From NCBI GenBank assembly GCA_016866975.1, contig VGKP01000001.1:34013-98012 (forward strand): DNA of 64,000 nucleotides, in the 5' to 3' direction. The notes under the pieces were generated by a model. That model was not told the DNA's origin. It ran no database searches and worked only from the letters and a program-made list of their open reading frames with translations. Within the stretch, counting starts at the first letter, position 1. Each line of letters opens with the position of its first letter. Shown here piece by piece: positions 2,520 to 50,017 of this stretch. The translations under genes and the position numbers were made by a program. Source of the DNA: Candidatus Pacearchaeota archaeon. GTDB lineage: Archaea; Nanobdellota; Nanobdellia; Pacearchaeales; GW2011-AR1.

Positions 2520-3401
2520 CTAGCTATGTAGAAAGTAAACCTCTATAGAGTAAAGGTTTACTAGTTTCTCCGCATTATAGGCAATAAATCTGAATAGTAA
2601 CTCATTCTTTTGACTAATAAATTTCCTAGCCAGAAGTAAATGTCCAAATCTTCTCTTTACAGCAGAAAAGGTACTTTCAACTAAGACTCTCTGATGATAG
2701 ATCTCCGATGGAAAATTGCGAAATAATCTCTTTCTATATTTGCCATTAACTCTTCTTCCCACAGTTGCAAACTTTCTTACAGGAACAATAAGTTCACTTC
2801 CACATTTATGAGCTAATTCGTGATTTCTCTCGCAATCATAGGCTTTGTCTGCAAGAAAAGCAGTTATAGGTAACTGCTTTGAAGACTGTTTCATAAGGTA
2901 AGGAACATCAATGATTTCATGACGCTTCTTTCTTCTCAGTCTAACGGCAATAATCAATCTTCTTTTCACTTCAACTGCAACATTCGCCTGCATGAAACGA
3001 TTGCGTTCTCCCGCAATCATGCAGAAGTAGGGGCTTCTTGAATTCAAACTAAACCCTGTCCCGTCAATTGCAACAAGACTCGATTCGTTACTTTTTACCA
3101 TGTTTGCAATTATTGTTTCCAGATAGGTTTGCTTAACTCGTAAGGCAAACTTATTTATCTTAGTAAAATGGACAGCTCTCGCTAAGTGGAGTTCTTCTTG
3201 TACAAGCGCAAGAAAAGCTGGCATCTTTCGTAATGCCTTACCTTCCAGTTGCATAAGCACCTGGATAACAATGTGTTGCTCATTAGAAAACACATTGTTC
3301 TTCTTTTTACTAAAGCTTCTAGGTATTCTAGCAGCTCTAACTCCAGATTTGACTCTCTGGATAAGTTTTTTATAGGAACTTTCCTCTTTCATTTGGACCA
3401 C
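2520..3401 (-). CDS. DDE transposase (IS4/IS5 family)
   Basis: The 293 aa protein carries the LADKAYD motif typical of DDE_Tnp_1 transposases. It fills the IS between the inverted repeats. Confidence 0.8.
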   Translation of the reverse strand: MVQMKEESSYKKLIQRVKSGVRAARIPRSFSKKKNNVFSNEQHIVIQVLMQLEGKALRKMPAFLALVQEELHLARAVHFTKINKFALRVKQTYLETIIANMVKSNESSLVAIDGTGFSLNSRSPYFCMIAGERNRFMQANVAVEVKRRLIIAVRLRRKKRHEIIDVPYLMKQSSKQLPITAFLADKAYDCERNHELAHKCGSELIVPVRKFATVGRRVNGKYRKRLFRNFPSEIYHQRVLVESTFSAVKRRFGHLLLARKFISQKNELLFRFIAYNAEKLVNLYSIEVYFLHS

Positions 3402-7893: not shown

Positions 7894-9263
7894 TCTGGCC
7901 AATATTCAGCAAGAATCTAAAGACTGTATCTAGGAATTGGAACTATTTTCTTGTCTTAGTGATTTTTCCAATATTTCTCATACTTCTCTCAGGAGCAGTA
8001 TTAAATTCCGCAAGCACTGATAACATAAAGGTAGGTCTCGTAAATGAAGGAGAGACCGTTTCTCTTGATTTTTCCAGCAAAGTTAAACAACTATACTCTC
8101 ATAGTTCATTAAGCGATTGCATTGCGAAGATGGCTGAAGGAAGCAGGGCGATCTGCATAAGAGTATATACAAAAGATGAAAAGCCACAGATAGATGCTTA
8201 TATAGACAATACACAGAAAGTTGTCGAGTCCTATACGAAACAGTTCTTCCTGGAGACTATATTGGAGAGGCAGAATCTAGAAATAGGCCATTCGGAGAAA
8301 ATCGAGGACAGACTATCTGTCTTCTCAACTTCTTTTCAAGATGCAAGAAAAGAACTTGATGTCAGCTTCCAAGAACTTGACAGACAAGAAAAGATATTGA
8401 CGGCTTATAGTGCCGAAATATTCGGGACAATGGAATCTTTTCCAAGAGATTCTCCTACAAGGAAATTACTTGAAAGAATGCAGTCAAATATTAGCAATTC
8501 AATACAGTCTGCACAAGAGGGCAAGAGAAAGATTGTTGTACTATTAAGCAAGACTGAACAAGGTAGTAAACAAATATACTCCTTAAAAGATTCCATAAGA
8601 GACAAAAGTGTAATATATCAAATTATGGATGGGATTGAAAACGTCCCAAAAAGTCCAGTAGCAAATACTTTCCCCCTCCTAGTAGCGATAATAATAACAT
8701 TTACTTCACTAATACTCTCAAACCTCTTCATATCGAGGCAAGTCAACCAGTCAAATTATTTCAGGTCGCTTATATCTCCCGTGAAAGGTTACTCCTTTTT
8801 CATCGCAGATTTCCTGATAAACTTATTCTTTGTGTTTATACAGTCACTGTTTATATTCATAGTAGGATTTTATATGTTTAATATACAAGTCATAAGCATC
8901 CTACCCCAATTAGCCTTGGTGATCTTCTTATCATCCTCCATATTTATCTTCTTAGGTATGAGCTTTGGCTATCTCTTCAAATCTGAAAACCTTTCAATGC
9001 TCGTATCTATATTTGTAGTAATTTTGTTCCAGATATTCTCAGATATCCTTGCACCTCCTGCACTGGTAGGCCCAGCAGTTGGATTCTTCATGAGCATAAA
9101 TCCATTCGTTATATTAGAGAATCTCTTAAGAGACCTTATAGTCATTGATAGACCTATGACATTACTGATTCCTTCCTTAAGCAAGTTGCTGATATTATTT
9201 TTATTGTCCATGGGCCTCGCAATTGCTGCTCAGAAGGCTAGGAAGAAAAAAGCTCTAGAGTAA
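7890..9263 (+). CDS. ABC-2 type transporter permease
   Basis: Its start overlaps the ATPase stop (ATGA). It has an N-terminal TM helix, a large extracytoplasmic loop and C-terminal TM helices. Confidence 0.6.
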   Translation: MIWPIFSKNLKTVSRNWNYFLVLVIFPIFLILLSGAVLNSASTDNIKVGLVNEGETVSLDFSSKVKQLYSHSSLSDCIAKMAEGSRAICIRVYTKDEKPQIDAYIDNTQKVVESYTKQFFLETILERQNLEIGHSEKIEDRLSVFSTSFQDARKELDVSFQELDRQEKILTAYSAEIFGTMESFPRDSPTRKLLERMQSNISNSIQSAQEGKRKIVVLLSKTEQGSKQIYSLKDSIRDKSVIYQIMDGIENVPKSPVANTFPLLVAIIITFTSLILSNLFISRQVNQSNYFRSLISPVKGYSFFIADFLINLFFVFIQSLFIFIVGFYMFNIQVISILPQLALVIFLSSSIFIFLGMSFGYLFKSENLSMLVSIFVVILFQIFSDILAPPALVGPAVGFFMSINPFVILENLLRDLIVIDRPMTLLIPSLSKLLILFLLSMGLAIAAQKARKKKALE

Positions 9264-9886: not shown

Positions 9887-10494
9887 TTTAGGTTCCGGTC
9901 TTCCCATGCCCTAATATAATCCTCGTCAAGATGTACATTGCTTCTATTTGGCTTTTGTGGGATATACTTCCGATAGTAGGCCCCAAATAAAAATCCAAAG
10001 AATATTCCTCCAAGATGAGCGAGATTTGCCACATTACTTGGGATAAAAAGACCAATCAAGTCCCCTATAATCCATAGAGATCCGGCCAGAAAAAGAGGCA
10101 TGGGAAGACCAAATGCAAAAACCATCATGCTCGGCCTTATCATTATCAGCGCACCTATCACTCCAAAAATCGCCCCTGATGCTCCTAATGCAGAGTCATA
10201 AAATGGCAACGATATAAAATTTGCAGAAATACCTGTCAAAAGAAAGACAGAGACAAACCTTCTTGGCCCTATCCATGCCTCCAACATGCTCCCAAAAAGA
10301 GCAAGGGCAAAAGAATTGTATAATAGATGACTTAATCCTCCATGAAGGAAAATTGCAGTTATAAATCGCCAAGGCTGTACCAATGAAGATTTGTTGAGCA
10401 ATAAAGATTCTGTGAATCCTGGGACAAGTGTTTGCACTATAAACATAACTATGCAAAGAAAAGTTGTCATTATTGCTATTCCTTTGAATGCCAT
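9883..10494 (-). CDS. Rhomboid-family intramembrane serine protease
   Basis: The GASGAIFG (GxSG) motif and a downstream His in AHLGG lie within a multi-TM protein. Confidence 0.65.
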   Translation of the reverse strand: MAFKGIAIMTTFLCIVMFIVQTLVPGFTESLLLNKSSLVQPWRFITAIFLHGGLSHLLYNSFALALFGSMLEAWIGPRRFVSVFLLTGISANFISLPFYDSALGASGAIFGVIGALIMIRPSMMVFAFGLPMPLFLAGSLWIIGDLIGLFIPSNVANLAHLGGIFFGFLFGAYYRKYIPQKPNRSNVHLDEDYIRAWEDRNLN

Positions 10495-10585
10495 TAATAA
10501 GAGAATTATGTTACCCTTATTAACTCTCCTAAAATCCTATGGGTTAGCGGTAGATTAAAAAACTCTCCTTTTTGTATATCTTTAT

Positions 10586-10708: not shown

Positions 10709-12100
10709 ATGAAAGGTGTTGTTATTAAAAAGAAGGCATATGACAATCATTCTCCTTGGATACACCAGCTTGAGAAAGTAAGGAAGCCTCGAGATATATT
10801 AAAAAAAGACATAAAGACCGATATGGCCATTGTAGGTGCAGGAATAGCAGGCATTTGTACAGCATATTTTATTTTAAGAGACACAAAAAACAAAGTAGTT
10901 GTAGTAGAGGCCAATAAAGTTGCACATGGTGCTACAGGGCATAATGCTGGCCAAATAGTAAGTTATTTTGAGAAGCCATTTTCAAAAATAGTGGAAGAAT
11001 ATGGGCTTGAATTGGCAGCAAGAGGGCAAGAAGAGATACTTAGCGGCTGGGAATTGCTTGAGCAAGTATATTCCGAGAGTGAGATTAAGACTTATTTCTC
11101 CCAGTTCATAGGATATGCCGGGTGCTCAACCTTAAAACAGCTCAATTCTCATCTTGAGAACAAGTATCTTAGAAACAAGGCAAATATCTCAATTGAAAAA
11201 GTCTTTGTATCTGAGAAGGCTCCGTTTTTAAAAGAAATACCTAAAAAATATGATGGCCTTTACGAGCTTGTTCCACATAAAAAAGTACTTGAAATATTAG
11301 AGACCAAAAGCAGTTTATATCATGCTGCATTGGCTTCTAAAAAAGGCTGTCTTAATAGTGCATTGTTTTGTGAGGAGCTTATTAGTTATCTTCTTTATAA
11401 ATATAAAGATAGGATTTCCCTATATGAGTTTACACCTATTGATAAGGTAGAGCTTTATGGTGATCATGTAAAACTTTCTACTAGAAAGGGTAAAATAATC
11501 AATGGAAAGAAAGTTGTGTTATGCACAAATGGATTTCAGAAATTAAAGATAAATAATAAATCTGGAAAGAACATAGATACCAGTTTCCATGATTTTATAC
11601 TGGGAGTTGTTGGATACATGGCTGCATACATAAGCCCTCAGACTGGAACCAAATCAAATGCCATAAGTTACTTCCCTAAAAGTAACAATGATGCAAGTGA
11701 TGCATATTTCTATCTTACTAAAAGAGAGTTCTCTGACAAGATGGAATCTGGCAATCTTATTTCTGTAGGTGGCCCTGAAGTCACACTTGACAATACTATA
11801 GAGTATATAAGAGACAAGCCTTATTTTGAGAAACATGAGAAAAAAATAGACAAGTTTCTCAAAAAGAATTATATCCATGCTCCAAAAAAGATAAATTACA
11901 AATACCACTGGCATGGCCTTATGGGGTACACCAAAAGTGAACTTAGAGCGATAGGTCCTCACCCTTATAACAAAAACCTATTATATAATCTTGGATGCAA
12001 TGGAGTAGGCATCCTGCCTTCGATATATGGGGGATACAAGATAGCACGTTTTATAACTGGGATAAAGATGCCAAAGTCAATATTTGATGTTGGAGTATAA
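10709..12100 (+). CDS. FAD-dependent oxidoreductase (DAO-like)
   Basis: An N-terminal GxGxxG motif (IVGAGIAGICTAYF) is present. Confidence 0.55.
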   Translation: MKGVVIKKKAYDNHSPWIHQLEKVRKPRDILKKDIKTDMAIVGAGIAGICTAYFILRDTKNKVVVVEANKVAHGATGHNAGQIVSYFEKPFSKIVEEYGLELAARGQEEILSGWELLEQVYSESEIKTYFSQFIGYAGCSTLKQLNSHLENKYLRNKANISIEKVFVSEKAPFLKEIPKKYDGLYELVPHKKVLEILETKSSLYHAALASKKGCLNSALFCEELISYLLYKYKDRISLYEFTPIDKVELYGDHVKLSTRKGKIINGKKVVLCTNGFQKLKINNKSGKNIDTSFHDFILGVVGYMAAYISPQTGTKSNAISYFPKSNNDASDAYFYLTKREFSDKMESGNLISVGGPEVTLDNTIEYIRDKPYFEKHEKKIDKFLKKNYIHAPKKINYKYHWHGLMGYTKSELRAIGPHPYNKNLLYNLGCNGVGILPSIYGGYKIARFITGIKMPKSIFDVGV

Positions 12101-12342
12101 TCAACTCTTATCATCTACTTGGTAGTTTTGACCATCACTATCTAGAATTTCTTCAGGTGGAGAATGGCTTGGAGGTTCGGGATGCATATATGGTTCGCAG
12201 ATTGTCCAGGCAGCACTCATATCTTCTCTGGCTTGATAGAGGGCGGCTGCGCATTTCTCGAGTTGTCCTGCGAGCTGTGGTCTTCCTCTTTTTTTGTCTG
12301 CCGTGGCTTGCCGTTGGATGTCTTCTGCGAGATCAAAAAAAC

Positions 12343-12453
12343 GATGCGCCACTGCGGCTTTTAAGCCGCAGTTTGATGCAGGCGCTCGTTTTTTGGATGC
12401 TCAAGGAACAACTCCAGCTTTTAAGCTGGAGTTTTAGTCAAGTTCCTTGACAT
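12343..12453 (-). repeat. Double-hairpin repeat element, copy C (reverse orientation)
   Basis: It is the reverse complement of copy B, including flipped hairpin loops (ttttaa). Confidence 0.8.
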
Positions 12454-12646
12454 AATAAATAACTTTTTCAGTTTGATCATAACGCATATTACCAATGGCT
12501 TGCGCTAATTCTTGAAGAGTACCAGAATAACCTTGTACATGATCGGGATGTTTGTTGCAGTTGTCCATTTTATTCTAAGTCTGATTTGCTCTTTTTGTGG
12601 GCATCCTCGCTTACGCTGCGGTGCTCTTCACTACGGGCAAACAGAC

Positions 12647-12783
12647 TGGCCTCGAGGGGATTTGAACCCCCGACACCTGGATTTCCTCCTAAGAGAAACA
12701 ATGTTCCCTTATGGGTAAACTCTCCTTTCAGAGAGTTTCTTAGGTAAAAGTCCAGTACTCTAACCGGGCTGAGCTACGAGGCC
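12647..12783 (-). tRNA. tRNA-Lys (TTT) with an intron of about 62 nt at the canonical 37/38 position
   Basis: Acceptor ggcctcg/cgaggcc, D-arm gctc..gagt, anticodon stem ctgga/tccag, loop cTTTTa interrupted by the intron, T-arm ggggg-ttcaaat-cccct. Confidence 0.65.
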
Positions 12784-41015: not shown

Positions 41016-42608
41016 ATGAGCGAGAAGCAGCCTGTATATGTCCTACCTGAACATGTTTCTAGAACTCTCGGCAAAGATGCACAACGCAACAATATTCTTG
41101 CTGCAAAGATCATTGCAGATATTGTGAAGACCACTTTGGGACCAAAGGGAATGGATAAGATGCTTGTTGATGCAGCAGGAGATGTGATTGTCACAAACGA
41201 TGGAGTAACTATATTGGAAGAGATGGAAATAGACCATCCTGCTGCAAAAATGCTTGTTGAGATAGCCAAGACACAGGAACATGAAGTAGGAGACGGAACT
41301 ACTACTGCTGCTTTACTCGCAGGCAAATTGCTGGAGCATGCTGAAAAACTTCTAGATAGAAAGATACATCCAACTGTGATTGTAAAAGGTTACAGGAAGG
41401 CTGCAGAAAAATCACATCAACTTCTGCAAGAGCTTGCTTTGCCTGTGAGGGATGCAATCATTTTAAGGCAGATTGCTATGACTGCCATGACTGGAAAGGG
41501 TGCTGAAGGACATAAAGAAAAGCTCGCAGACCTTATTGTGAAAGCTGCTGAACAAGTAGCGGCCGGAAGAGAGATATCTTTGAATGATATAAAGGTGCAG
41601 AAGTTGAAAGGACAGGACGTTCAGGAAAGCGAGATAGTGCAAGGACTTGTTTTGGAGAGGGAGAGATCAAATAGTGCGATGCCCTCAATTGTCAAAGATG
41701 CGAAGGTTCTCCTTGTTGACTTTTCTCTTGAAATTAAGAGTCCTGAAAGCGAGGCTAAGATCGCTGTGTCTACCCCTGAGCAGCTAGATAGTTTCCTTGC
41801 ATCTGAGGAAAGATATCTTAAGATGATGACTGACAAGATACTCTCGACCGGGGCAAACGCAGTATTCTGCCAAAAAGGAATAGATGATGTTGCACAATAC
41901 TATCTTGCGCAGGCAGGTGTATTTGCATGCCGAAGAGTGTCAAAATCAGACATGGAGTTTCTTTCCAGGGCTACTGGAGCAAAAATATTATCAAACTTGC
42001 ATGATGTGCATGCCTCTGCCCTTGGAGATGCTAAAGAAGTTGAGGAAAAGACGAATGGTGATGATCATTTTATATATTTTAGAGGGTGCCAGAATCAAAG
42101 AGTAGCTACATTGATATTAAGAGGCCAGACTGTGCATGTTGTCGATGAGATAGAGAGGGCAGTAAAGGATGGCCTTGGAGATGTCATCTCTACTGTAAAG
42201 AGCGGAAAAATCGTGCCAGGAGGAGGAGCGATAGAGATTGAGTTGGCCAGAAGATTAAGAGTCTATGCAAAAAGCATGGGTGGAAGAGAACAGCTGGCAA
42301 TAGAAGAGTTTGCGCACGCACTAGAGAGCATACCTGAATCCCTTGCTGAGAATGCTGGCCTTGACCCTCTTGATATTTTGACCGAGTTAAGAAAGAGACA
42401 TGAAGCTGGAATGCAAGGGCATGGGTTGAATCTTTTTACTGATACTATTGAAGATACTCTAAACGCGGGAATTGTAGAGCCCCTAAAAGTCAAGACACAG
42501 GCAATAAGCTCTGCATCTGAGGTCGCAATGATGATATTGCGTATTGATGATGTCCTTGTGAGCAAGAGAGGCGCGCAACAGATGCCAAGATATGAAGGCA
42601 TGGATTAA
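41016..42608 (+). CDS. ths: Thermosome subunit (group II chaperonin)
   Basis: The 530 aa protein has group II chaperonin motifs ([21 protein letters not shown]). Confidence 0.9.
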
Positions 42609-42623
42609 CGCTCGTAGAAATCC

Positions 42624-42664
42624 TCTACCTTTAGGTAGAGGTTAAAACCCGAAGGGTTTTGTGG
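42624..42664 (+). terminator. Tandem hairpins just 3' of the thermosome gene, shared with the motif at 57794..57830
   Basis: ctctacc-ttta-ggtagag is followed by aaaaccc-gaa-gggtttt. Confidence 0.4.
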
Positions 42665-42785
42665 TGATCAAATGTACTTTGTGCCATAATGCCCTAAACC
42701 TCGAGGATGTGAATCCTTGAATGCCATCAATAATGGAATATTATTAAAGTGCTTGAGTTTTATTCAAGTAACTTGACATGATAAA

Positions 42786-43100
42786 ATGAAAAATGAGAAT
42801 AGAGATAAAAGGATGAATGAGACTAGAGCTCTTACACCTGAACAACTGAGCTTGCTTGAAAGAAATTTATTTGGAATTGGCGCAGCCATTGGATTTGTAA
42901 ATGGTGCTTTTCTTGGAAATTTTGATGTTTCTTTAGAAGCATATTTTATAACGGCCATTCCAATATTTACTCCTGCATATATTATAGCTTATCAATTAAC
43001 ATTTAAAGATAAAAAGAATTCATTTAGAATAGGAAGTTGTGCGTGTGGAGGATATTTGGTAGGTGAGGCTTTAGAGATGTTAGTTAGGAATTATCTCTAA
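42786..43100 (+). CDS. Hypothetical protein
   Basis: The 104 aa ORF has a hydrophobic core. Confidence 0.3.
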   Translation: MKNENRDKRMNETRALTPEQLSLLERNLFGIGAAIGFVNGAFLGNFDVSLEAYFITAIPIFTPAYIIAYQLTFKDKKNSFRIGSCACGGYLVGEALEMLVRNYL

Positions 43101-43103
43101 AAA

Positions 43104-43919
43104 TTAATGCTGTTTTTTCCTTCGCGCTTTCTTTTTCAATATCCGGCCCAGATTATAATGTGCTTTCTTTACCGCTACTTTTTTTCTCTTTCTAATATGA
43201 CTTGATATTGGATTGTATATTCTTTCATTTTCTGGTAATGTGGGGGATATTCTAGGATGTTTTATTAATACCGGAAAAATTTGTTCTGGAGTGAATATTC
43301 CTTCTCCTTTTAAGATATCCAATACAGTCTCTTCACTTAAATTATGATTCCCTCCTCTGTACTCCCTATATAATTCTGATCGAGATTTTTGAACAACTGA
43401 TACTCCATAGAATCCGGTTGTGTCAGCTTCATTTATATTTCCACAATAAAGAATTAGTTTGGGAGAAGTTTCGGGATTACCGAAATGATAATCTACAAAT
43501 TTTCTATATTCGCTGAAATTTCTGAAATGTTCATCTAAAAATTCTGTAATTTCTTTATTTTCTCTTCCTGTGCATTTAATAATTTGTTTAAAATCTCTAA
43601 AATTTTTAAGTTGGAGATGAATATGACGTTCGTCTTTTGAATGGCAGTAACCTAGCTGACCTTGAATAAGCCTTATAAAATCGTCCCCGCATATTCCTTC
43701 GTAAAAATGATTATCGCTGATTATCGCTGAATATCTTTTTCCTAATTGTATTATATCTTTGAGATGTTCCATTGCCTCCACTGGACTCTCTGTATACTGA
43801 GTAAATTCTCCTGATTCTGGGAAAGCTAAATTGGCTGCTCTTTCTATAACTTCTTCTAGGTCTGAGATGTTTTCATACTCATTATCTACCATCAATATTG
43901 GGTCAAATTTATCATCCAT
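43104..43919 (-). CDS. Hypothetical protein with a basic C-terminal tail. It contains a 10-bp tandem duplication.
   Basis: The 271 aa ORF carries gattatcgct twice in tandem at 43709..43728. Confidence 0.35.
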   Translation of the reverse strand: MDDKFDPILMVDNEYENISDLEEVIERAANLAFPESGEFTQYTESPVEAMEHLKDIIQLGKRYSAIISDNHFYEGICGDDFIRLIQGQLGYCHSKDERHIHLQLKNFRDFKQIIKCTGRENKEITEFLDEHFRNFSEYRKFVDYHFGNPETSPKLILYCGNINEADTTGFYGVSVVQKSRSELYREYRGGNHNLSEETVLDILKGEGIFTPEQIFPVLIKHPRISPTLPENERIYNPISSHIRKRKKVAVKKAHYNLGRILKKKARRKKQH

Positions 43920-44100
43920 GTATTTATTGATTTAAAAAGGAGGTTTTTAAGTCTTTCTTAAAAGAAATATAGAAATACTATGTTTGTAATTTTCTCTCCC
44001 AGATTTTCTCTTAATCCTGAACAAAATTCTCTGTTCGGGAGAGTAGTATTTAGAAAAGGATAAGGAAAAGATTATAAACCTACTCCTGAAGAAATTTTGT

Positions 44101-44622
44101 ATGGAATTTAATAAAATTTCCTTGAAAAAATGTCTTGACTTAGTTGAAGCCTCACGCAAAATGGTATTTGACAAACGTATTCCTCCTATTGAGAAGTGCG
44201 ATTCTCCTCTTTCAAGAAACAGATTAGTCTTAAAAGGAGTCCTCTCCGCAGGAGCGCGAAATGGATGTTTCAATTCCGGGCAATATAACTTTATTAAAAA
44301 TGCTTTGCCGTATTATCAACGTATTGTTGATGCAAACAAGCAGATTGATGAAACTCCATTCTTGAGAGAATCTGGAGTTTCTTTGGTATCTGATGCCCTT
44401 ACTATATCAGAAAATATCTGCTATAAAAGTTCTCCGCGAGACCGCTTGCTGTTCCTTCTCAGAAAGCGACAGGAAACACTTGCCCAGAATGATGTTTATT
44501 TTGAGCAATTTTACTTCCATCCTGTAGAAAAAGTAATAAGAAGAATTGAATCTGAATATGACTCTTGTGTGCAACTTCGCCATGAACTTAATTCCTGGAG
44601 AGAACGCCTGCCCTGTTCTTAA
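44101..44622 (+). CDS. Hypothetical protein
   Basis: The 173 aa ORF ends immediately before the first repeat of the tRNA 3' end. Confidence 0.3.
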   Translation: MEFNKISLKKCLDLVEASRKMVFDKRIPPIEKCDSPLSRNRLVLKGVLSAGARNGCFNSGQYNFIKNALPYYQRIVDANKQIDETPFLRESGVSLVSDALTISENICYKSSPRDRLLFLLRKRQETLAQNDVYFEQFYFHPVEKVIRRIESEYDSCVQLRHELNSWRERLPCS

Positions 44623-44623
44623 A

Positions 44624-44876
44624 TGCGCCCGCCGGCTGAAAGAATTTTCCTGCGAAATTCTTAGTGCCGTCTGTCGCACTTGTTTTCATTTCATTCAACA
44701 AGAAATGCGCCCGCCGGTGCTCGCAGACAAAGTCCGCGGCAACTTTGATGCTTACGCATTCAAAGTGAATTCTTCCCGGCAATGTGCGACAACATGCGCC
44801 CGCCGGCTGAAAGAATTTTCCTGCGAAATTCTTAGTGCCGTCTGTCGCACTTGTTTTCATTTCATTCAACAAGAAA
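44624..44876. repeat. Direct-repeat array downstream of tRNA-Gly: three extra copies of the tRNA 3' terminal 12-mer (tgcgcccgccgg) separated by a duplicated 69-bp unit and a 78-bp unit
   Basis: The 12-mer occurs at 44624, 44705, 44795 and 44877, the last inside the tRNA. The unit 44624..44704 is identical to 44795..44875. Confidence 0.75.
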
Positions 44877-44947
44877 TGCGCCCGCCGGGAATCGAACCCG
44901 AATTTACTGATTGGCAACCAGTCGTTCTACCACTAAACTACGAGCGC
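44877..44947 (-). tRNA. tRNA-Gly (GCC)
   Basis: Acceptor gcgctcg/cgggcgc, anticodon loop ttGCCaa, T-arm tcggg-ttcgatt-cccgg. Confidence 0.8.
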
Positions 44948-45026
44948 TTGATTGTTGAAGAAAAAAGGGTTATTTAAAAGTTCACATGGAATAAGAATCA
45001 GCCTAATTTTAGCCACCTCTTCCGAT

Positions 45027-45374
45027 TCATTGTTTCGTATTGGCCTTGCAAAAGATAAGAGGGATATCGTCACATTTATCGGCAATGTGGTCAAGAGATT
45101 TGCCTTGAGACGTCTCCTTCCGCGTCATTGCATTGTGAAGTCTGCCTCTTACGAATATTACCTTATATATCCCCTTATTTCTCTGGAAATATCCTCTTTC
45201 CCCATAGAGATAATCATCGAGAGTAGTTCCGCCATCTACAATCCCTCTTAACGCCTTATCATGTATAGATTTTATTAGAATTTCTGCCCCAGATTCAGGT
45301 AAGGCAAGCATTGTCTTTTTCGTATGACCTTCATCACCAGGATTATAAACGCTTATCTGATCAATAAAACTCAT
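45027..45374 (-). CDS. Hypothetical protein
   Basis: The 115 aa ORF shows no recognisable motifs. Confidence 0.3.
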   Translation of the reverse strand: MSFIDQISVYNPGDEGHTKKTMLALPESGAEILIKSIHDKALRGIVDGGTTLDDYLYGERGYFQRNKGIYKVIFVRGRLHNAMTRKETSQGKSLDHIADKCDDIPLIFCKANTKQ

Positions 45375-45448
45375 TATGATAAAATAATTAGATGTTATTT
45401 AAAGATTGTTATGATTAGATTTATTAATTTACTGAATATCTTATAATT

Positions 45449-45688
45449 ATGAAAAAGAAGTATATGAAAATACCTAAAGTTGTTTTCATCTCGTGTTCTA
45501 ACTGTGGAAAAAGATGTAAAAGGAGAGTACCTGAAGACTTTAGCCCTGGATTTTTCGATTGTGATAATTGCAGCAATAGGATGAATACTCCTGTTTCGTC
45601 ATGTTGTATAATATGTGCGTATACTGGAAAGAAATGCGCCCCTACTCTGATAATGGAAGCAAAGATAAAAGGATTAGAGATAAGATAA
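45449..45688 (+). CDS. Zinc-ribbon protein
   Basis: Motifs CSNCGKRC..CDNCSNR..CCIICAYTGKKC are present. Confidence 0.4.
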   Translation: MKKKYMKIPKVVFISCSNCGKRCKRRVPEDFSPGFFDCDNCSNRMNTPVSSCCIICAYTGKKCAPTLIMEAKIKGLEIR

Positions 45689-45820
45689 CTTCAATAGAAA
45701 ACATATGGCTTTAGGAAATAAAACTTGCAGATAGATTTAAACTTTCATATTAACTTTATTTGTCTTAACAATACATCTGTATCTATAGGTTTAAATAGGA
45801 TTTTTATTTGTTTTTGCTAA

Positions 45821-45891
45821 GGCCCATTAGGCTAATGGTAGACCGGGTCGTTTACACCGACCATGCCGAAGTTCGATTCTTCGATGGGCCA
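45821..45891 (+). tRNA. tRNA-Val (TAC)
   Basis: Acceptor ggcccat/atgggcc, anticodon stem ggtcg/cgacc, loop ttTACac, T-arm cgaag-ttcgatt-cttcg. Confidence 0.7.
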
Positions 45892-46170
45892 TTTATATTT
45901 ATTGAATCAAACTAAAAGAGCCGGGAGATAAGGAAGATAGTTTTGGAGGTATACCTTAAGGGTATTGTAAGTTTTCTGTGCTGAGGGAGAGTTTTCCAAT
46001 ATCTTTTCCAAGGGTCTTCTTATCTGTGCAGATGCCTCTCGTGAGCATTCTATCACTGAAACTATGCTGAATAAAGCGCCTGAGATTGTATAGCTCTTAA
46101 AAGAGTCGGATTCTCCCATTTTTTTACTAAATTAGGTGATTATAAATATCCTTGCATATTCAATCTAAGA

Positions 46171-46241
46171 GGCCCTATAGTCTAGTGGCAGAACGCCTCT
46201 TTCACGTGGAGGACGCCGGGGTTCGATTCCCTGTGGGGCCA
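46171..46241 (+). tRNA. tRNA-Val (CAC)
   Basis: Acceptor ggcccta/tggggcc, anticodon stem cctct/ggagg, loop ttCACgt, T-arm cgggg-ttcgatt-ccctg. Confidence 0.7.
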
Positions 46242-46265
46242 TTTAGTGAGTGTCAAAGAAGACAT

Positions 46266-47033
46266 TTAATCTAATTCGTAAGCTCCGTTCCCTTTGAAGC
46301 GTAGAAATCCTTTATCTCTGAGTATTTGAAGTTGCTGCCGTATTTTGTCTTTAATGTGGAGATTATTAGGGTGGATTCTCGCGAGTTCTCCTTCAAATCT
46401 GTAAATTTCATCAAGCTGAAAAGTTTTCTTGCTAAGTGAATGGATGACATTGAGAATATCAATTGTCCACCCTCTTTCCGAAAGAGGAGTTTTCTTCATA
46501 AAATCAACTTTTCTCCACTTTTCATTTACTTCTTTCTTTTCTAATATAGCACCATCTTTAATAATCGAGATTCTGCCTTCTTTGGGTATTTTTTCCATTA
46601 AGAGGTTGCATCCAACCCATCCTCTTCTTCGCGCATTCTCAGAGAGAGGTCTTCTCTTTTCTATAATTTCCTCAACAAAAAAGAAAGAAGGCACGATAAG
46701 CAGATTTTTGACACAATAGTCCTTAGTGTATTGGAGAAAGAGGAAATTGGGTCGCGTTCCTTCTTTAATTGACTGAATCATTGTAGAAAAGGCTCCATCT
46801 ACAATTTTCTTAGCAAGAGTGTTATTTTGGCTTTTCAGTTGGAAAGTCTCTTGACAAATTTCACAAATAAAATCTGCGACGGGAGTTCCAGCTTTCAATT
46901 TTAGAATGTGTTCGCTTAAACAAGATACACAAAAAAGATTTTTCTCGGCCCAATCTTCGCTCAGAACACGTATTCGTTGCGTGTTGCTTTTGTACTTATC
47001 AAAAACACCTTGATTATACAATTGTAATTCCAT
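46266..47033 (-). CDS. DpnI/DRP-like restriction endonuclease candidate (methyl-directed type IIM) with a C-terminal winged helix
   Basis: The 255 aa protein resembles DpnI as recalled from memory. It has an N-terminal CxxC..CxxC region, a central catalytic region and a C-terminal KIRQQLQILRDKGFL winged-helix-like segment. The assignment is not database-verified. Confidence 0.45.
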   Translation of the reverse strand: MELQLYNQGVFDKYKSNTQRIRVLSEDWAEKNLFCVSCLSEHILKLKAGTPVADFICEICQETFQLKSQNNTLAKKIVDGAFSTMIQSIKEGTRPNFLFLQYTKDYCVKNLLIVPSFFFVEEIIEKRRPLSENARRRGWVGCNLLMEKIPKEGRISIIKDGAILEKKEVNEKWRKVDFMKKTPLSERGWTIDILNVIHSLSKKTFQLDEIYRFEGELARIHPNNLHIKDKIRQQLQILRDKGFLRFKGNGAYELD

Positions 47034-47094
47034 CTTAAAGTTTTCTTAGAATATCATGGATCTATTTAAATACTCGCGAGATCACTGAAAAAAT

Positions 47095-47355
47095 ATGAAG
47101 ATTACGCAGACAATCCTGCAGAAGACATTTCGTGTTGAACATCATGGAAAAGTCTACTATGTGGATTATGTAAACTCTGATGGACAAGCATTAATTTTGT
47201 TAAATAGAGACAACTGGCAGATTTATGATGAAAATCATGAAGAATTGAACATTTACCTTTGGAAAGATTCAAATAAGAAAGAAAAGAAAAAAATAGAAAT
47301 GAACTTATGTCTCGCAGAAAAGCTTATTTCTTTTTGTATTCTAAAATTTAATTAG
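47095..47355 (+). CDS. Hypothetical protein
   Basis: The 86 aa ORF shows no recognisable motifs. Confidence 0.25.
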   Translation: MKITQTILQKTFRVEHHGKVYYVDYVNSDGQALILLNRDNWQIYDENHEELNIYLWKDSNKKEKKKIEMNLCLAEKLISFCILKFN

Positions 47356-47395
47356 TACCATCCACCAATATATCTGTAATGTTCCTCTAGAATGT

Positions 47396-47563
47396 ATGAA
47401 GGTACTCAAAGAGAGGTCACGAGTGTATAATGGGAAACCGTATTACAAGTATAAGGTGAACATTCCTGCCGAGGATCTTGAGAAAGCAGGGTTTAAGGAA
47501 GGGGATGAGTTGGAGACGGATGTGAAGAAGGGTGAGATTGTTCTAAAAAAGAAATATGATTAA
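47396..47563 (+). CDS. AbrB/MazE/SpoVT-like swapped-hairpin DNA-binding protein of 55 aa, below the ORF-track cutoff
   Basis: The translation MKVLKERSRVYNGKPYYKYKVNIPAEDLEKAGFKEGDELETDVKKGEIVLKK fits the family pattern. Confidence 0.4.
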   Translation: MKVLKERSRVYNGKPYYKYKVNIPAEDLEKAGFKEGDELETDVKKGEIVLKKKYD

Positions 47564-49298: not shown

Positions 49299-49380
49299 AT
49301 TTTTATGGAGATTAAGAAGTATATAAATCTTCCTATTTGTAACTATTTTATAGTGATAACTAATAATCGAAAAAGTTATA

Positions 49381-49402
49381 TATGCGTATGTGCATACGCA
49401 TA
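49381..49402 (+). promoter_or_regulatory. Inverted-repeat operator candidate for vapBC
   Basis: It reads tatgcgtatg-tg-catacgcata: 10-bp arms with a 2-bp spacer, ending 1 nt before the vapB ATG. Confidence 0.45.
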
Positions 49403-49403
49403 C

Positions 49404-49640
49404 ATGGTTAAAGTGATTTCGTTATCTGAGGAGGCCTATAGGAGATTGAAGGCAAACAAAGGCAGCAAGAGCTTTTCTGAAGTGGTGATTGAATTTGTGC
49501 CTGAACGGAAGAAAAGAAATATTATGGAATTTGCGGGAGCATTCAAGGACAATGCAGAGGAGTGGGAACGGATTGAGAAAGAAATTTATGCAGAAAGAAA
49601 GAGGGCAAAACTGCGAGACCGATGGCAACGTATTGCTTAG
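49404..49640 (+). CDS. vapB: VapB-like antitoxin
   Basis: The 78 aa product starts MVKVISLSEEAYRRLK. It overlaps the downstream PIN gene. Confidence 0.55.
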   Translation: MVKVISLSEEAYRRLKANKGSKSFSEVVIEFVPERKKRNIMEFAGAFKDNAEEWERIEKEIYAERKRAKLRDRWQRIA

Positions 49641-50017
49641 ACACTGGTATTGTTATTGCTTTTTTAAAGCAACAACCTTCCATCTTTGAGAAGATTGCTT
49701 CCCTCAGTGAGACGAACTCTATGTACATTACTTCCATTGTTCTGTGCGAACTTTATAAGGGTGTTTATCGCTCTTCAAATCTTGCGTATGAACTTTCAAT
49801 CCTTGAAAAATTCATAGAAACAGTGCCTGTTTTAGATTTTAGTATAGAGGCGTGCCGTATCTTTGGAGAGGATTTTGTGAGATTGCAAAAAGAAGGGAAT
49901 ATGATTGATGATTTTGATGTTATGGTTGCCTCCATTGCGAAAGCCCATGGAGCGACAGTGGTGACGCGGAACAAAAAACATTTTATGCAAACAGGCGTCG
50001 CAGTCGAGGAATGGTAA
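49622..50017 (+). CDS. vapC: PIN-domain toxin VapC
   Basis: It has an N-terminal D in CLDTGIVI, further acidic residues and the TRNKKHF tail. Confidence 0.7.
   Translation: MATYCLDTGIVIAFLKQQPSIFEKIASLSETNSMYITSIVLCELYKGVYRSSNLAYELSILEKFIETVPVLDFSIEACRIFGEDFVRLQKEGNMIDDFDVMVASIAKAHGATVVTRNKKHFMQTGVAVEEW

Follow-up and report, generated by a model that had tools for sequence, protein, structure and literature searches.

The locus lies in a 64-kb stretch, hereafter the window, of the metagenome contig JGI 3300020200 Ga0194121_10000274 from a Pacearchaeota-type DPANN archaeon, and it centres on a tRNA-Gly(GCC) gene on the minus strand (44877..44947; ARAGORN; Rfam tRNA, 67.5 bits). The last 12 nt of this gene, tRNA positions 62-73 (44888..44877, minus strand) and hereafter T, read CCGGCGGGCGCA on the tRNA strand and TGCGCCCGCCGG on the plus strand. 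The latter occurs exactly four times in the window, at 44624, 44706, 44795 and 44877, all within a span of 265 bp; no further copy with one mismatch was found in the 64 kb, and 100 shuffles gave 0. With one extra common base the repeat is 13 nt long, ATGCGCCCGCCGG, at 44623, 44705, 44794 and 44876. The order given in the preliminary description, T-R-T-S-T-R-T(tRNA), was reproduced, with two like copies of R (69 bp) and one S (76 bp). The two T-R-T blocks, of 95 nt each, are 100% identical to one another and recur with a period of 171 bp.

A long six-frame ORF (44546..44977, plus strand) runs through the array, antisense to tRNA-Gly. It is present as previously described and, because it overlaps both the tRNA and the array, it is spurious. 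On the far side, a 173-aa ORF (44101..44622, plus strand) converges on the array, and its stop codon abuts the distal T. It has no homologue in a collection of 5.8 billion proteins, making it the only true singleton of the block of ORFans between the thermosome gene and the array; it does not belong to the R element and may or may not be a real gene. The other neighbours of the array (a 115-aa ORF, a 79-aa ORF, tRNA-Val genes and a DpnI gene) contain no recombinase domain according to Pfam. The DpnI-like endonuclease, specific for methylated DNA, is encoded at 46266-47033 (minus strand) beside the tRNA-Val genes UAC and CAC (45821-45891 and 46171-46241); in several relatives' loci, tRNA-Val(UAC) alone is found near tRNA-Gly. 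A few kb from the array lie a pair of a VapB-like antitoxin and a PIN-domain protein (49305-50017) and, separate from it, a 55-aa MazE/AbrB-like ORF (47396-47563).

It had been suggested that the ORFan block (42786-44622) is a degraded integrated element, and this was not borne out. No T copy was found near the thermosome end of the interval 42609-44622, even with three mismatches allowed. The 271-aa protein of the block has a few homologues in other Pacearchaeota (44-65% identity in database searches), which, where the contig context is known, are encoded beside the thermosome gene or one gene away from it; the 271-aa gene therefore belongs to the local backbone of this subclade and is not recent cargo. 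The 10-bp tandem duplication reported earlier was found inside this ORF (TGATTATCGC, 2.8 copies, 43708-43735). The loci of 80 relatives were fetched through the thermosome gene, for which the best identity to any species-representative genome was 71%, and tblastn of the ORFan proteins against these loci, the 104-aa and 115-aa ORFs included, gave no match. Among the relatives, the interval between the thermosome gene and tRNA-Gly varies in content and ranges in length from about 100 nt to more than 9 kb; it is thus a hot spot. The thermosome stop codon is followed at once by CGCTCGTAG (42609-42618), which on the opposite strand agrees over 9 nt with the tRNA-Gly(GCC) 5' end; chance alone would give about 0.5 such matches in the window. 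Two terminator-like hairpins come next.

Read on the tRNA strand, R together with one T forms an 82-nt structured unit that begins directly after the discriminator base. In the tRNA-proximal copy (44795..44876, minus strand; covariance model R1, 82 bits, E 3e-19; delimited also by fold and family alignment), the order is U, hairpin A (44873..44850), the octamer UGCGACAG (44849..44842), ACGG (44841..44838), hairpin B (44837..44807) and the terminal T copy (44806..44795). Hairpin A is CUUGUU / AACAAG with a purine-rich loop. The octamer is an imperfect complement of the acceptor 3' strand plus the discriminator and is referred to as anti-T. Hairpin B consists of C-ACU-AAGAAUUU, a loop and AAAUUCUU-UCA-G, with the conserved core ACGGCACUAAGAAUUU..AAAUUCUUUCAGCCGG, and the T copy can be read as CCGG + CGGGCGC + A, which is tRNA positions 62-73. 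The distal copy (44624..44705, minus strand; 82 bits with R1; part of the 95-nt identity) has the same sequence, with anti-T and ACGG at 44678..44667 and its T copy at 44635..44624.

Since R contains an internal 8-nt complement of its own T copy, the minimum-energy prediction is hairpin A and, after it, a single long hairpin with the anti-T/T duplex as its base. In this model the base of the long hairpin is a mimic of the host tRNA's acceptor stem and of its last T-stem pairs, and an A opposite position 69 is conserved and unpaired. The fold is supported by covariation. In an alignment of 12 members, a hand-drawn structure (basal stem, 4-bp CGGC/GCCG stem, 3x3 internal loop and 8-bp A/U stem) has 89.5% of its cells paired, as against 80.5 +/- 1.1% in shuffles; both sides change at seven pairs, and the covariation score was reached by 0 of 500 shuffles. 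When the partner strand was slid by 1-3 columns, pairing fell to 31-52%. RNAalifold arrived at the same helix independently of the hand-drawn structure, and every member folds likewise (z -2.2 to -5.3). The 3' strand of the basal stem is set by the host tRNA, and the 5' strand changes along with the host acceptor sequence, with the exception of the almost invariant A opposite position 69 (unpaired in 9/12) and an invariant A opposite G65. Apart from the 3x3 internal loop, columns 32/86 and 36/82 stay unpaired in the alignment and in RNAalifold. Hairpin A is present in nine of the 12 members with entirely different stem sequences, several having a GAAGAAUGAAA-like loop, and is missing or truncated in loci L012, L031 and L089. 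G-U pairs outnumber A-C pairs on the tRNA strand by 10 to 3, a weak hint that this is the working strand. An Rfam cmscan of 42000-47500 (E<=1) returned only three tRNAs and two chance matches elsewhere, and R falls in no Rfam family. The GAAGAAU/GAAUGAAA motif is not enriched as a general feature downstream of tRNAs (5 occurrences versus 2.3 expected), and its occurrences there are mostly members of the R family.

The 3' two-thirds of the unit occurs outside the window as well. In two of the 80 relatives' loci the motif stands behind the resident tRNA-Gly(GCC), namely in L012 and L031 (thermosome identity 71% and 63%, respectively); the downstream 12-mer is the end of the locus's own tRNA in L031 and differs from it at two positions in L012. 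The family motif is ACGGYACTAARAATTT-N-TTYARCCGG. A metagenome scan with ACGGYACTAARAATTT-N(6-24)-TTYARCCGG returned 11 contigs; in each of them a 12-mer precedes the motif by 61-90 nt and recurs at the motif's own 3' end. The hosts in these contigs are tRNA-Ala(GGC), tRNA-Ala(UGC), tRNA-Gly(UCC), tRNA-Glu(CUC), one intron-bearing tRNA-Gly and two intron-bearing tRNA-Glu(CUC) lineages. After deduplication the R unit is present in 13 independent Pacearchaeota/Woesearchaeota-type loci. In all 13 the element lies on the strand of the upstream 12-mer, 48-90 nt after it, and the terminal copy of that 12-mer is exact in nine and different at one or two positions in four. The repeated block starts at tRNA position 62 with no leftward extension (0/13), and its right end is the discriminator plus 0-3 T-rich bases. 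The core is nearly invariant across tRNA isotypes and across hosts whose thermosomes are only 60-70% identical. A search of 1.29 Mb with R1, the covariance model built for the family, gave no further members. R is an intact copy of a tiny, gene-less hairpin family that sits behind DPANN tRNA genes and mimics the upstream tRNA end. A full-text search found no account of such hairpin elements within the library searched, and on this basis the family appears not to have been described previously.

Several details of individual loci deserve mention. One family member (L097, 2127-2260) follows a T-like 12-mer, ACGGAGGGAGCA, outside any recognisable tRNA, perhaps a secondary site or the remains of a tRNA gone to decay. 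The tRNA-Glu(CUC) introns are about 115-120 nt long and contain a GAGATGATAC/GAGATGATGC box (L094, 7770-7970; L098, 10090-10320; L091, 4180-4350); L094 and L098 are about 95% identical in the intron and the 3' half of the tRNA, whereas many positions differ in its 5' part. The 17 nt past the distal T copy in the window (44623-44640, TTAAGAACAGGGCAGGCG) resemble 11995-12028 of L031 (TCGCGAACAGCAGCGCC), where the flanking genes are unrelated; this likeness could reflect an old common tRNA trailer or chance.

Evidence for mobility comes from the comparison of loci. In L088 and L093, from different samples, the same 90-nt element, 100% identical, stands behind tRNA-Ala(GGC) and tRNA-Ala(UGC); the tRNA bodies differ at many positions, the flanks are unrelated, and the final base of the T copy marks the exact limit of the identity. 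Among about 34 tRNA-Gly(GCC) loci, three have the R element. The closest relative found, L107, has a nearly identical tRNA-Gly and a neighbouring 79-aa protein with 75% identity, and its site is empty, no T copy being present within 400 nt; L099 likewise lacks the T repeat and represents an empty site. Furthermore, L009 and L010 have a common tRNA-Gly 3' end, and in L010 a filler of 105 nt and a T copy are followed by a trailer like the one that directly follows the tRNA in L009.

We therefore favour, with a probability of about 0.55, the reading that the 82-nt unit is a non-autonomous miniature element that has no genes of its own and inserts specifically at the 3' end of tRNA genes, within the 12-nt T and by means of a recombinase encoded elsewhere. 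The element would insert by site-specific recombination within T, and the recombinase would recognise a folded single strand whose stem reproduces the double-stranded target. A folded single-strand substrate is favoured because the stem reproduces the duplex target, because its mismatches are conserved, and because a unit of 50-90 nt is too short to circularise as a duplex but not as a single strand. By analogy with integron attC sites and CTX phage, recombination may thus proceed through a folded single strand; transposition of the IS200/IS605 type is a second possibility of the same general kind.

Some observations weigh against the insertion reading. No integrase and no HUH enzyme were found in the 30 of 63 window ORFs scanned (ORFs of at least 90 aa, with all those inside or beside the array included), and the sole transposase among the ORFs scanned, a 293-aa ORF with a DDE_Tnp_1 domain (E 2e-15; 2520-3401, minus strand), is 42 kb away. 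Beside the R elements of the other loci there is likewise no recombinase, the neighbours being housekeeping genes only (RFC, DisA-like cyclase, PLD, rubrerythrin and GTPase). Searches turned up neither a larger parent element nor any copy in viruses or plasmids; blastn of the whole array against phage and plasmid collections gave chance matches or none, and exact 20-mers of S and R and the family motif had no match in viral contigs. Neither an excised form nor a pair of empty and filled sites within one population was seen, and the sole length variant, otherwise 100% identical, could be an assembly collapse. The identity between L088 and L093 could be due to gene conversion if both loci already had the element, and the member in L097 has no recognisable tRNA upstream.

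The main alternative is that R is not mobile and is a structure of use to the host: a 3' processing signal, a terminator or insulator, or a minihelix RNA cut by RNase P and RNase Z. In variants of this explanation the hairpin would be co-transcribed with the tRNA, or would act on DNA or on an antisense transcript; the acceptor mimic would be maintained by selection, with the tRNA also acting as donor in gene conversion. Relevant here is the comparison of L094 with L098, which are orthologous. Ten of their 14 differences fall at unpaired positions, that is, in loops and at mismatches (Fisher p = 0.004), and two of the four differences at paired positions make up a compensatory change from C-G to U-A. 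This pattern shows selection on the fold; it does not tell who benefits, and it fits a host-useful structure as well as it fits an insertion element that is still active. The right boundary of the repeat, at the discriminator, coincides with the RNase Z site, the G-U excess lies on the tRNA strand, the distal T copy runs on into a T-rich trailer typical of tRNAs, and on the plus strand R scores as a hairpin with a T-run that faces the convergent 173-aa ORF. All of this would suit a host function. A processing signal would nevertheless hardly be so sporadic as to occur at three of about 34 tRNA-Gly(GCC) loci and to be missing in the closest relatives, nor is one core behind unrelated tRNAs in distant hosts, or 100% identical copies with sharp borders at two loci, readily explained in this way. 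Two R copies and S, as in the window, would be superfluous for processing, and at many tRNAs a T-run separates the tRNA from the element. The possibility, raised in the preliminary description, that the repeat structure is simply conserved in relatives with no cargo is half right: the structure of R is kept in distant relatives, but its distribution is sporadic. On balance we consider a host structure unlikely.

The preliminary description itself had read the repeats as scars of site-specific integration and excision. In the classical form of this reading, larger plasmids or viruses would have integrated at the tRNA through a tyrosine integrase and later been cut down by deletion to short stretches flanked by attL and attR. 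A direct repeat of the 3' end of a tRNA is the hallmark of integration at tRNA genes, as set out for ordinary tRNA-fragment repeats from integrating elements (PMC9897764). In keeping with such events, L009 and L046 have repeats of 42-46 nt that start in the anticodon arm and lie 1.3 kb apart, and the interval adjoining the tRNA is variable. Random deletion, on the other hand, would yield neither one structured unit of 50-90 nt with covarying stems at 13 loci nor identical copies at two of them; neither an integrase fragment nor a parent element was found, and the internal complement of T is left unexplained. The part of the earlier claim that stands is that the T copies were made by insertion at the tRNA gene, and more than one use of the site is supported, relatives too having copies of tRNA 3' ends downstream. 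What does not stand is the notion of a decayed remnant, R being a full-length structured member of a family, and we regard deletion-derived scars as quite improbable.

If the tRNA-specific insertion element is accepted, the array could have grown by one unit per insertion at the intact, tRNA-proximal T, with R, then S, then R again inserted there to give T-R-T-S-T-R-T(tRNA). Alternatively, it could have arisen by unequal recombination between T copies and subsequent deletion. S (44718..44793, minus strand; delimited by sequence, fold and blastn) is closed by an exact T 12-mer (44706..44717, minus strand). It is predicted to form two hairpins closed by pairing of its own 5' part with the T that follows, and it carries a GAAGAAU motif, as do the loops of hairpin A. 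No relatives of S were found by blastn-short in all the fetched loci. By analogy S may be a unit of another hairpin family; since it is without relatives, its status as an element is a matter of analogy, which counts against the insertion reading. Arrays with three T copies are found also at L044 and L037.

The number of units in the array may be affected by assembly. The contig of a sister sample, 3300020198, has only T-R-T(tRNA) and is otherwise 100% identical over 3.1 kb, and two Logan contigs break off inside R; from these observations it follows that the number of 171-bp units can be fixed only with reads. The length difference is either a true 171-bp polymorphism or the path of the assembler through a repeat loop. 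Gain or loss of a 171-bp unit through unequal recombination of the 95-nt T-R-T blocks would account for the short form in the sister sample. It could also be held that the multiplicity is an artefact of an arbitrary path through the loop, the genome itself containing just T-R-T(tRNA) or a different count of 171-bp units; a 95-nt repeat is shorter than typical final k-mers, and both the short sister contig and the Logan contigs ending within R would agree with this. S with T on both sides is, however, real sequence, whose sole consistent place is between two T-R-T blocks, and all long contigs show the long form. We therefore think an artefact very unlikely, and it would touch the copy number alone and not the identity of R.

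Among known systems, R resembles integron cassettes in several respects. Like attC, it is an imperfect hairpin with conserved unpaired bases at the 3' end of each unit, with an inverse copy of the junction at its 5' foot and the junction sequence itself at its 3' foot; as in cassette arrays, units are stacked at one primary site and contain no recombinase, and related DPANN fillers likewise carry one or two genes, such as those of toxin type. It differs in that the junction is the 12-nt tRNA 3' end (CCGG + acceptor 3' strand), so that R has no attC core (RYYYAAC ... GTTRRRY) and no GTTRRRY at its borders, and in that the primary site is a tRNA gene and not attI. Neither IntI nor attI lies beside the array as judged from the flanking ORFs and Pfam, no IntI occurs near R, the hosts are archaea, the units of the window are gene-less, and folded-strand recombination is, for R, inferred. 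The attP(+) hairpin of CTX phage, which is used by Xer, shares with R a single-strand stem that reproduces a double-stranded target with mismatches, and arrays at one site; its target is dif and not a tRNA end, and R is 50-90 nt long and has no genes. Both attC sites and the CTX-phage attP hairpin work as folded single-strand recombination substrates.

The PATEs derived from IS200/IS605 are, like R, small, gene-less and hairpin-rich; they lie in one orientation just 3' of a specific sequence, and inside them is a stretch that can pair both with the adjoining target and with their own end. R has subterminal hairpins of this kind and is inserted in one orientation 3' of a fixed target, on the tRNA strand after the 12-mer in 13 of 13 loci. 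Its complementarity, however, comprises 8-12 Watson-Crick pairs as against 4-5 nt, its target and its right end are the same 12-mer, it appears to occupy one site per genome rather than many, and neither TnpA (the Y1 HUH transposase) nor TnpB is present among the 30 window ORFs scanned. With archaeal integrative plasmids and viruses of the SSV, pTN3 and pNOB8 types R shares a direct repeat of the tRNA 3' end with the tRNA left intact (four exact 12-mers, the last inside the tRNA) and a variable presence among relatives (L107 and L099 empty). In contrast to these, its repeat is only 12 nt, the filler is 36-78 nt with a conserved structure, and no integrase was found in or beside the inserts of 69 and 76 nt by Pfam on the flanking and 20 other window ORFs. 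Insertion of the casposon or CRISPR type would give a duplication of similar size at a tRNA 3' end, with units added by the intact site and the repeat alternating with inserts; R, though, has no terminal inverted repeats and no Cas1, and the presence within it of a complement to the duplicated sequence is not accounted for by simple duplication of a target. By analogy, R would work most like a hairpin site of attC or CTX type anchored on a tRNA end. Insertion targeted at tRNA genes is of a known kind; what is new in R is that the inserted unit has a target-mimicking hairpin and no genes.

Some other candidates were rejected. A MITE of the DDE type is excluded by the want of terminal inverted repeats (R ends with CTGAAAGAAT.. 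and ..CAACAAGAA), by 5' ends that vary among members and by the scarcity of copies within the loci examined, R1 finding two in the 64-kb window and one per locus elsewhere. An archaeal tRNA intron would need a bulge-helix-bulge motif; the helices of R are interrupted by single mismatches and a 3x3 loop, two 3-nt bulges separated by 4 bp are lacking, and the upstream tRNA is complete without splicing. In a CRISPR array the repeats are about 24-48 nt, compared with 12-13 nt here, and the spacers are unique, whereas two of the three in this array are identical; the repeat here is, moreover, the end of a tRNA. A retro-copy of a mature tRNA-like RNA was rejected because none of the T copies is followed by CCA.

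Copies of tRNA 3' ends are not restricted to the R family. Among 91 tRNAs of related Pacearchaeota loci, there are 15 whose 3' 12-mer recurs, with up to one mismatch, in the 3 kb downstream, at spacings of 48 nt to 1.4 kb. For one of the 91 the copy is upstream, this being a tRNA-Val 3'-segment repeat seen from its other side, and for none is the 5' end repeated downstream. Further short fillers belong to other hairpin families and likewise end in a T copy. A second family, CCCAGAGAU..AUCUCUGAGC, occurs in L013 and L015, where CCCAGAGAT-ATWAAT-ATCTCTGAGC stands directly before the T copy (L013, about 10320-10540, host tRNA-Gly; L015, about 11900-12685, host tRNA-Val) and is preceded by more hairpins of the AAGAAT/ATTCTT type. 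A third, CUGUAUA..UAUACAG, occurs in L047 and L049, with CTGTATA-TGTTTT-TATACAG just before a one-mismatch copy of the tRNA-Ala(GGC) 3' end (about 8400-9110 and 8300-8580, respectively). In L067 (7275-7624), tRNA-Glu(UUC) is followed by three tandem 61-nt units (..GGTTTAAACAAATATTCAAACAGGAAAGTGCGCGAG..) and then by 17 nt that repeat the 3' end of the tRNA. The longer intervals between tRNA-end copies (0.8-1.4 kb) are free of integrase genes and contain one or two small ones, which, judged by their motifs, encode a Fic protein (L071), a nucleotidyltransferase (MNT) and HEPN-like pair (L009), an NYN/LabA-like protein (L037), an HD protein (L046) and a membrane protein (L015).

From the tRNA 3'-end copies and the filler families in relatives, we conclude that tRNA 3' ends are a general landing site in this lineage, of which the array in the window, with its gene-less units, is one instance. 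A more far-reaching proposal, which we put forward tentatively and hold to be doubtful, is that tRNA 3' ends serve as the primary sites of an integron-like cassette platform in Pacearchaeota/Woesearchaeota. A recombinase encoded elsewhere would insert and excise acceptor-mimic hairpin units, R would represent empty cassettes, related units would carry the Fic, HEPN/MNT, NYN and HD genes, and, as the element would recognise its target through its own base-pairing, a change in two short strands would suffice to redirect it to a new tRNA.

DPANN archaea have small genomes, and their mobile elements are little known. The R family, with its covariance model, offers a compact and recognisable marker for insertions at DPANN tRNA genes. 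It also serves as a warning for annotation, as short copies of tRNA ends, and long ORFs running across them, are not genes. More importantly, a targeting rule is suggested within the element's own sequence, in that the stem of the hairpin copies the target. Should the proposed mechanism be true, the family would be an archaeal counterpart of the folded-strand sites attC and CTX attP, anchored on tRNA genes, and it could help to account for the gain of small defence and toxin genes in the reduced genomes of DPANN archaea.
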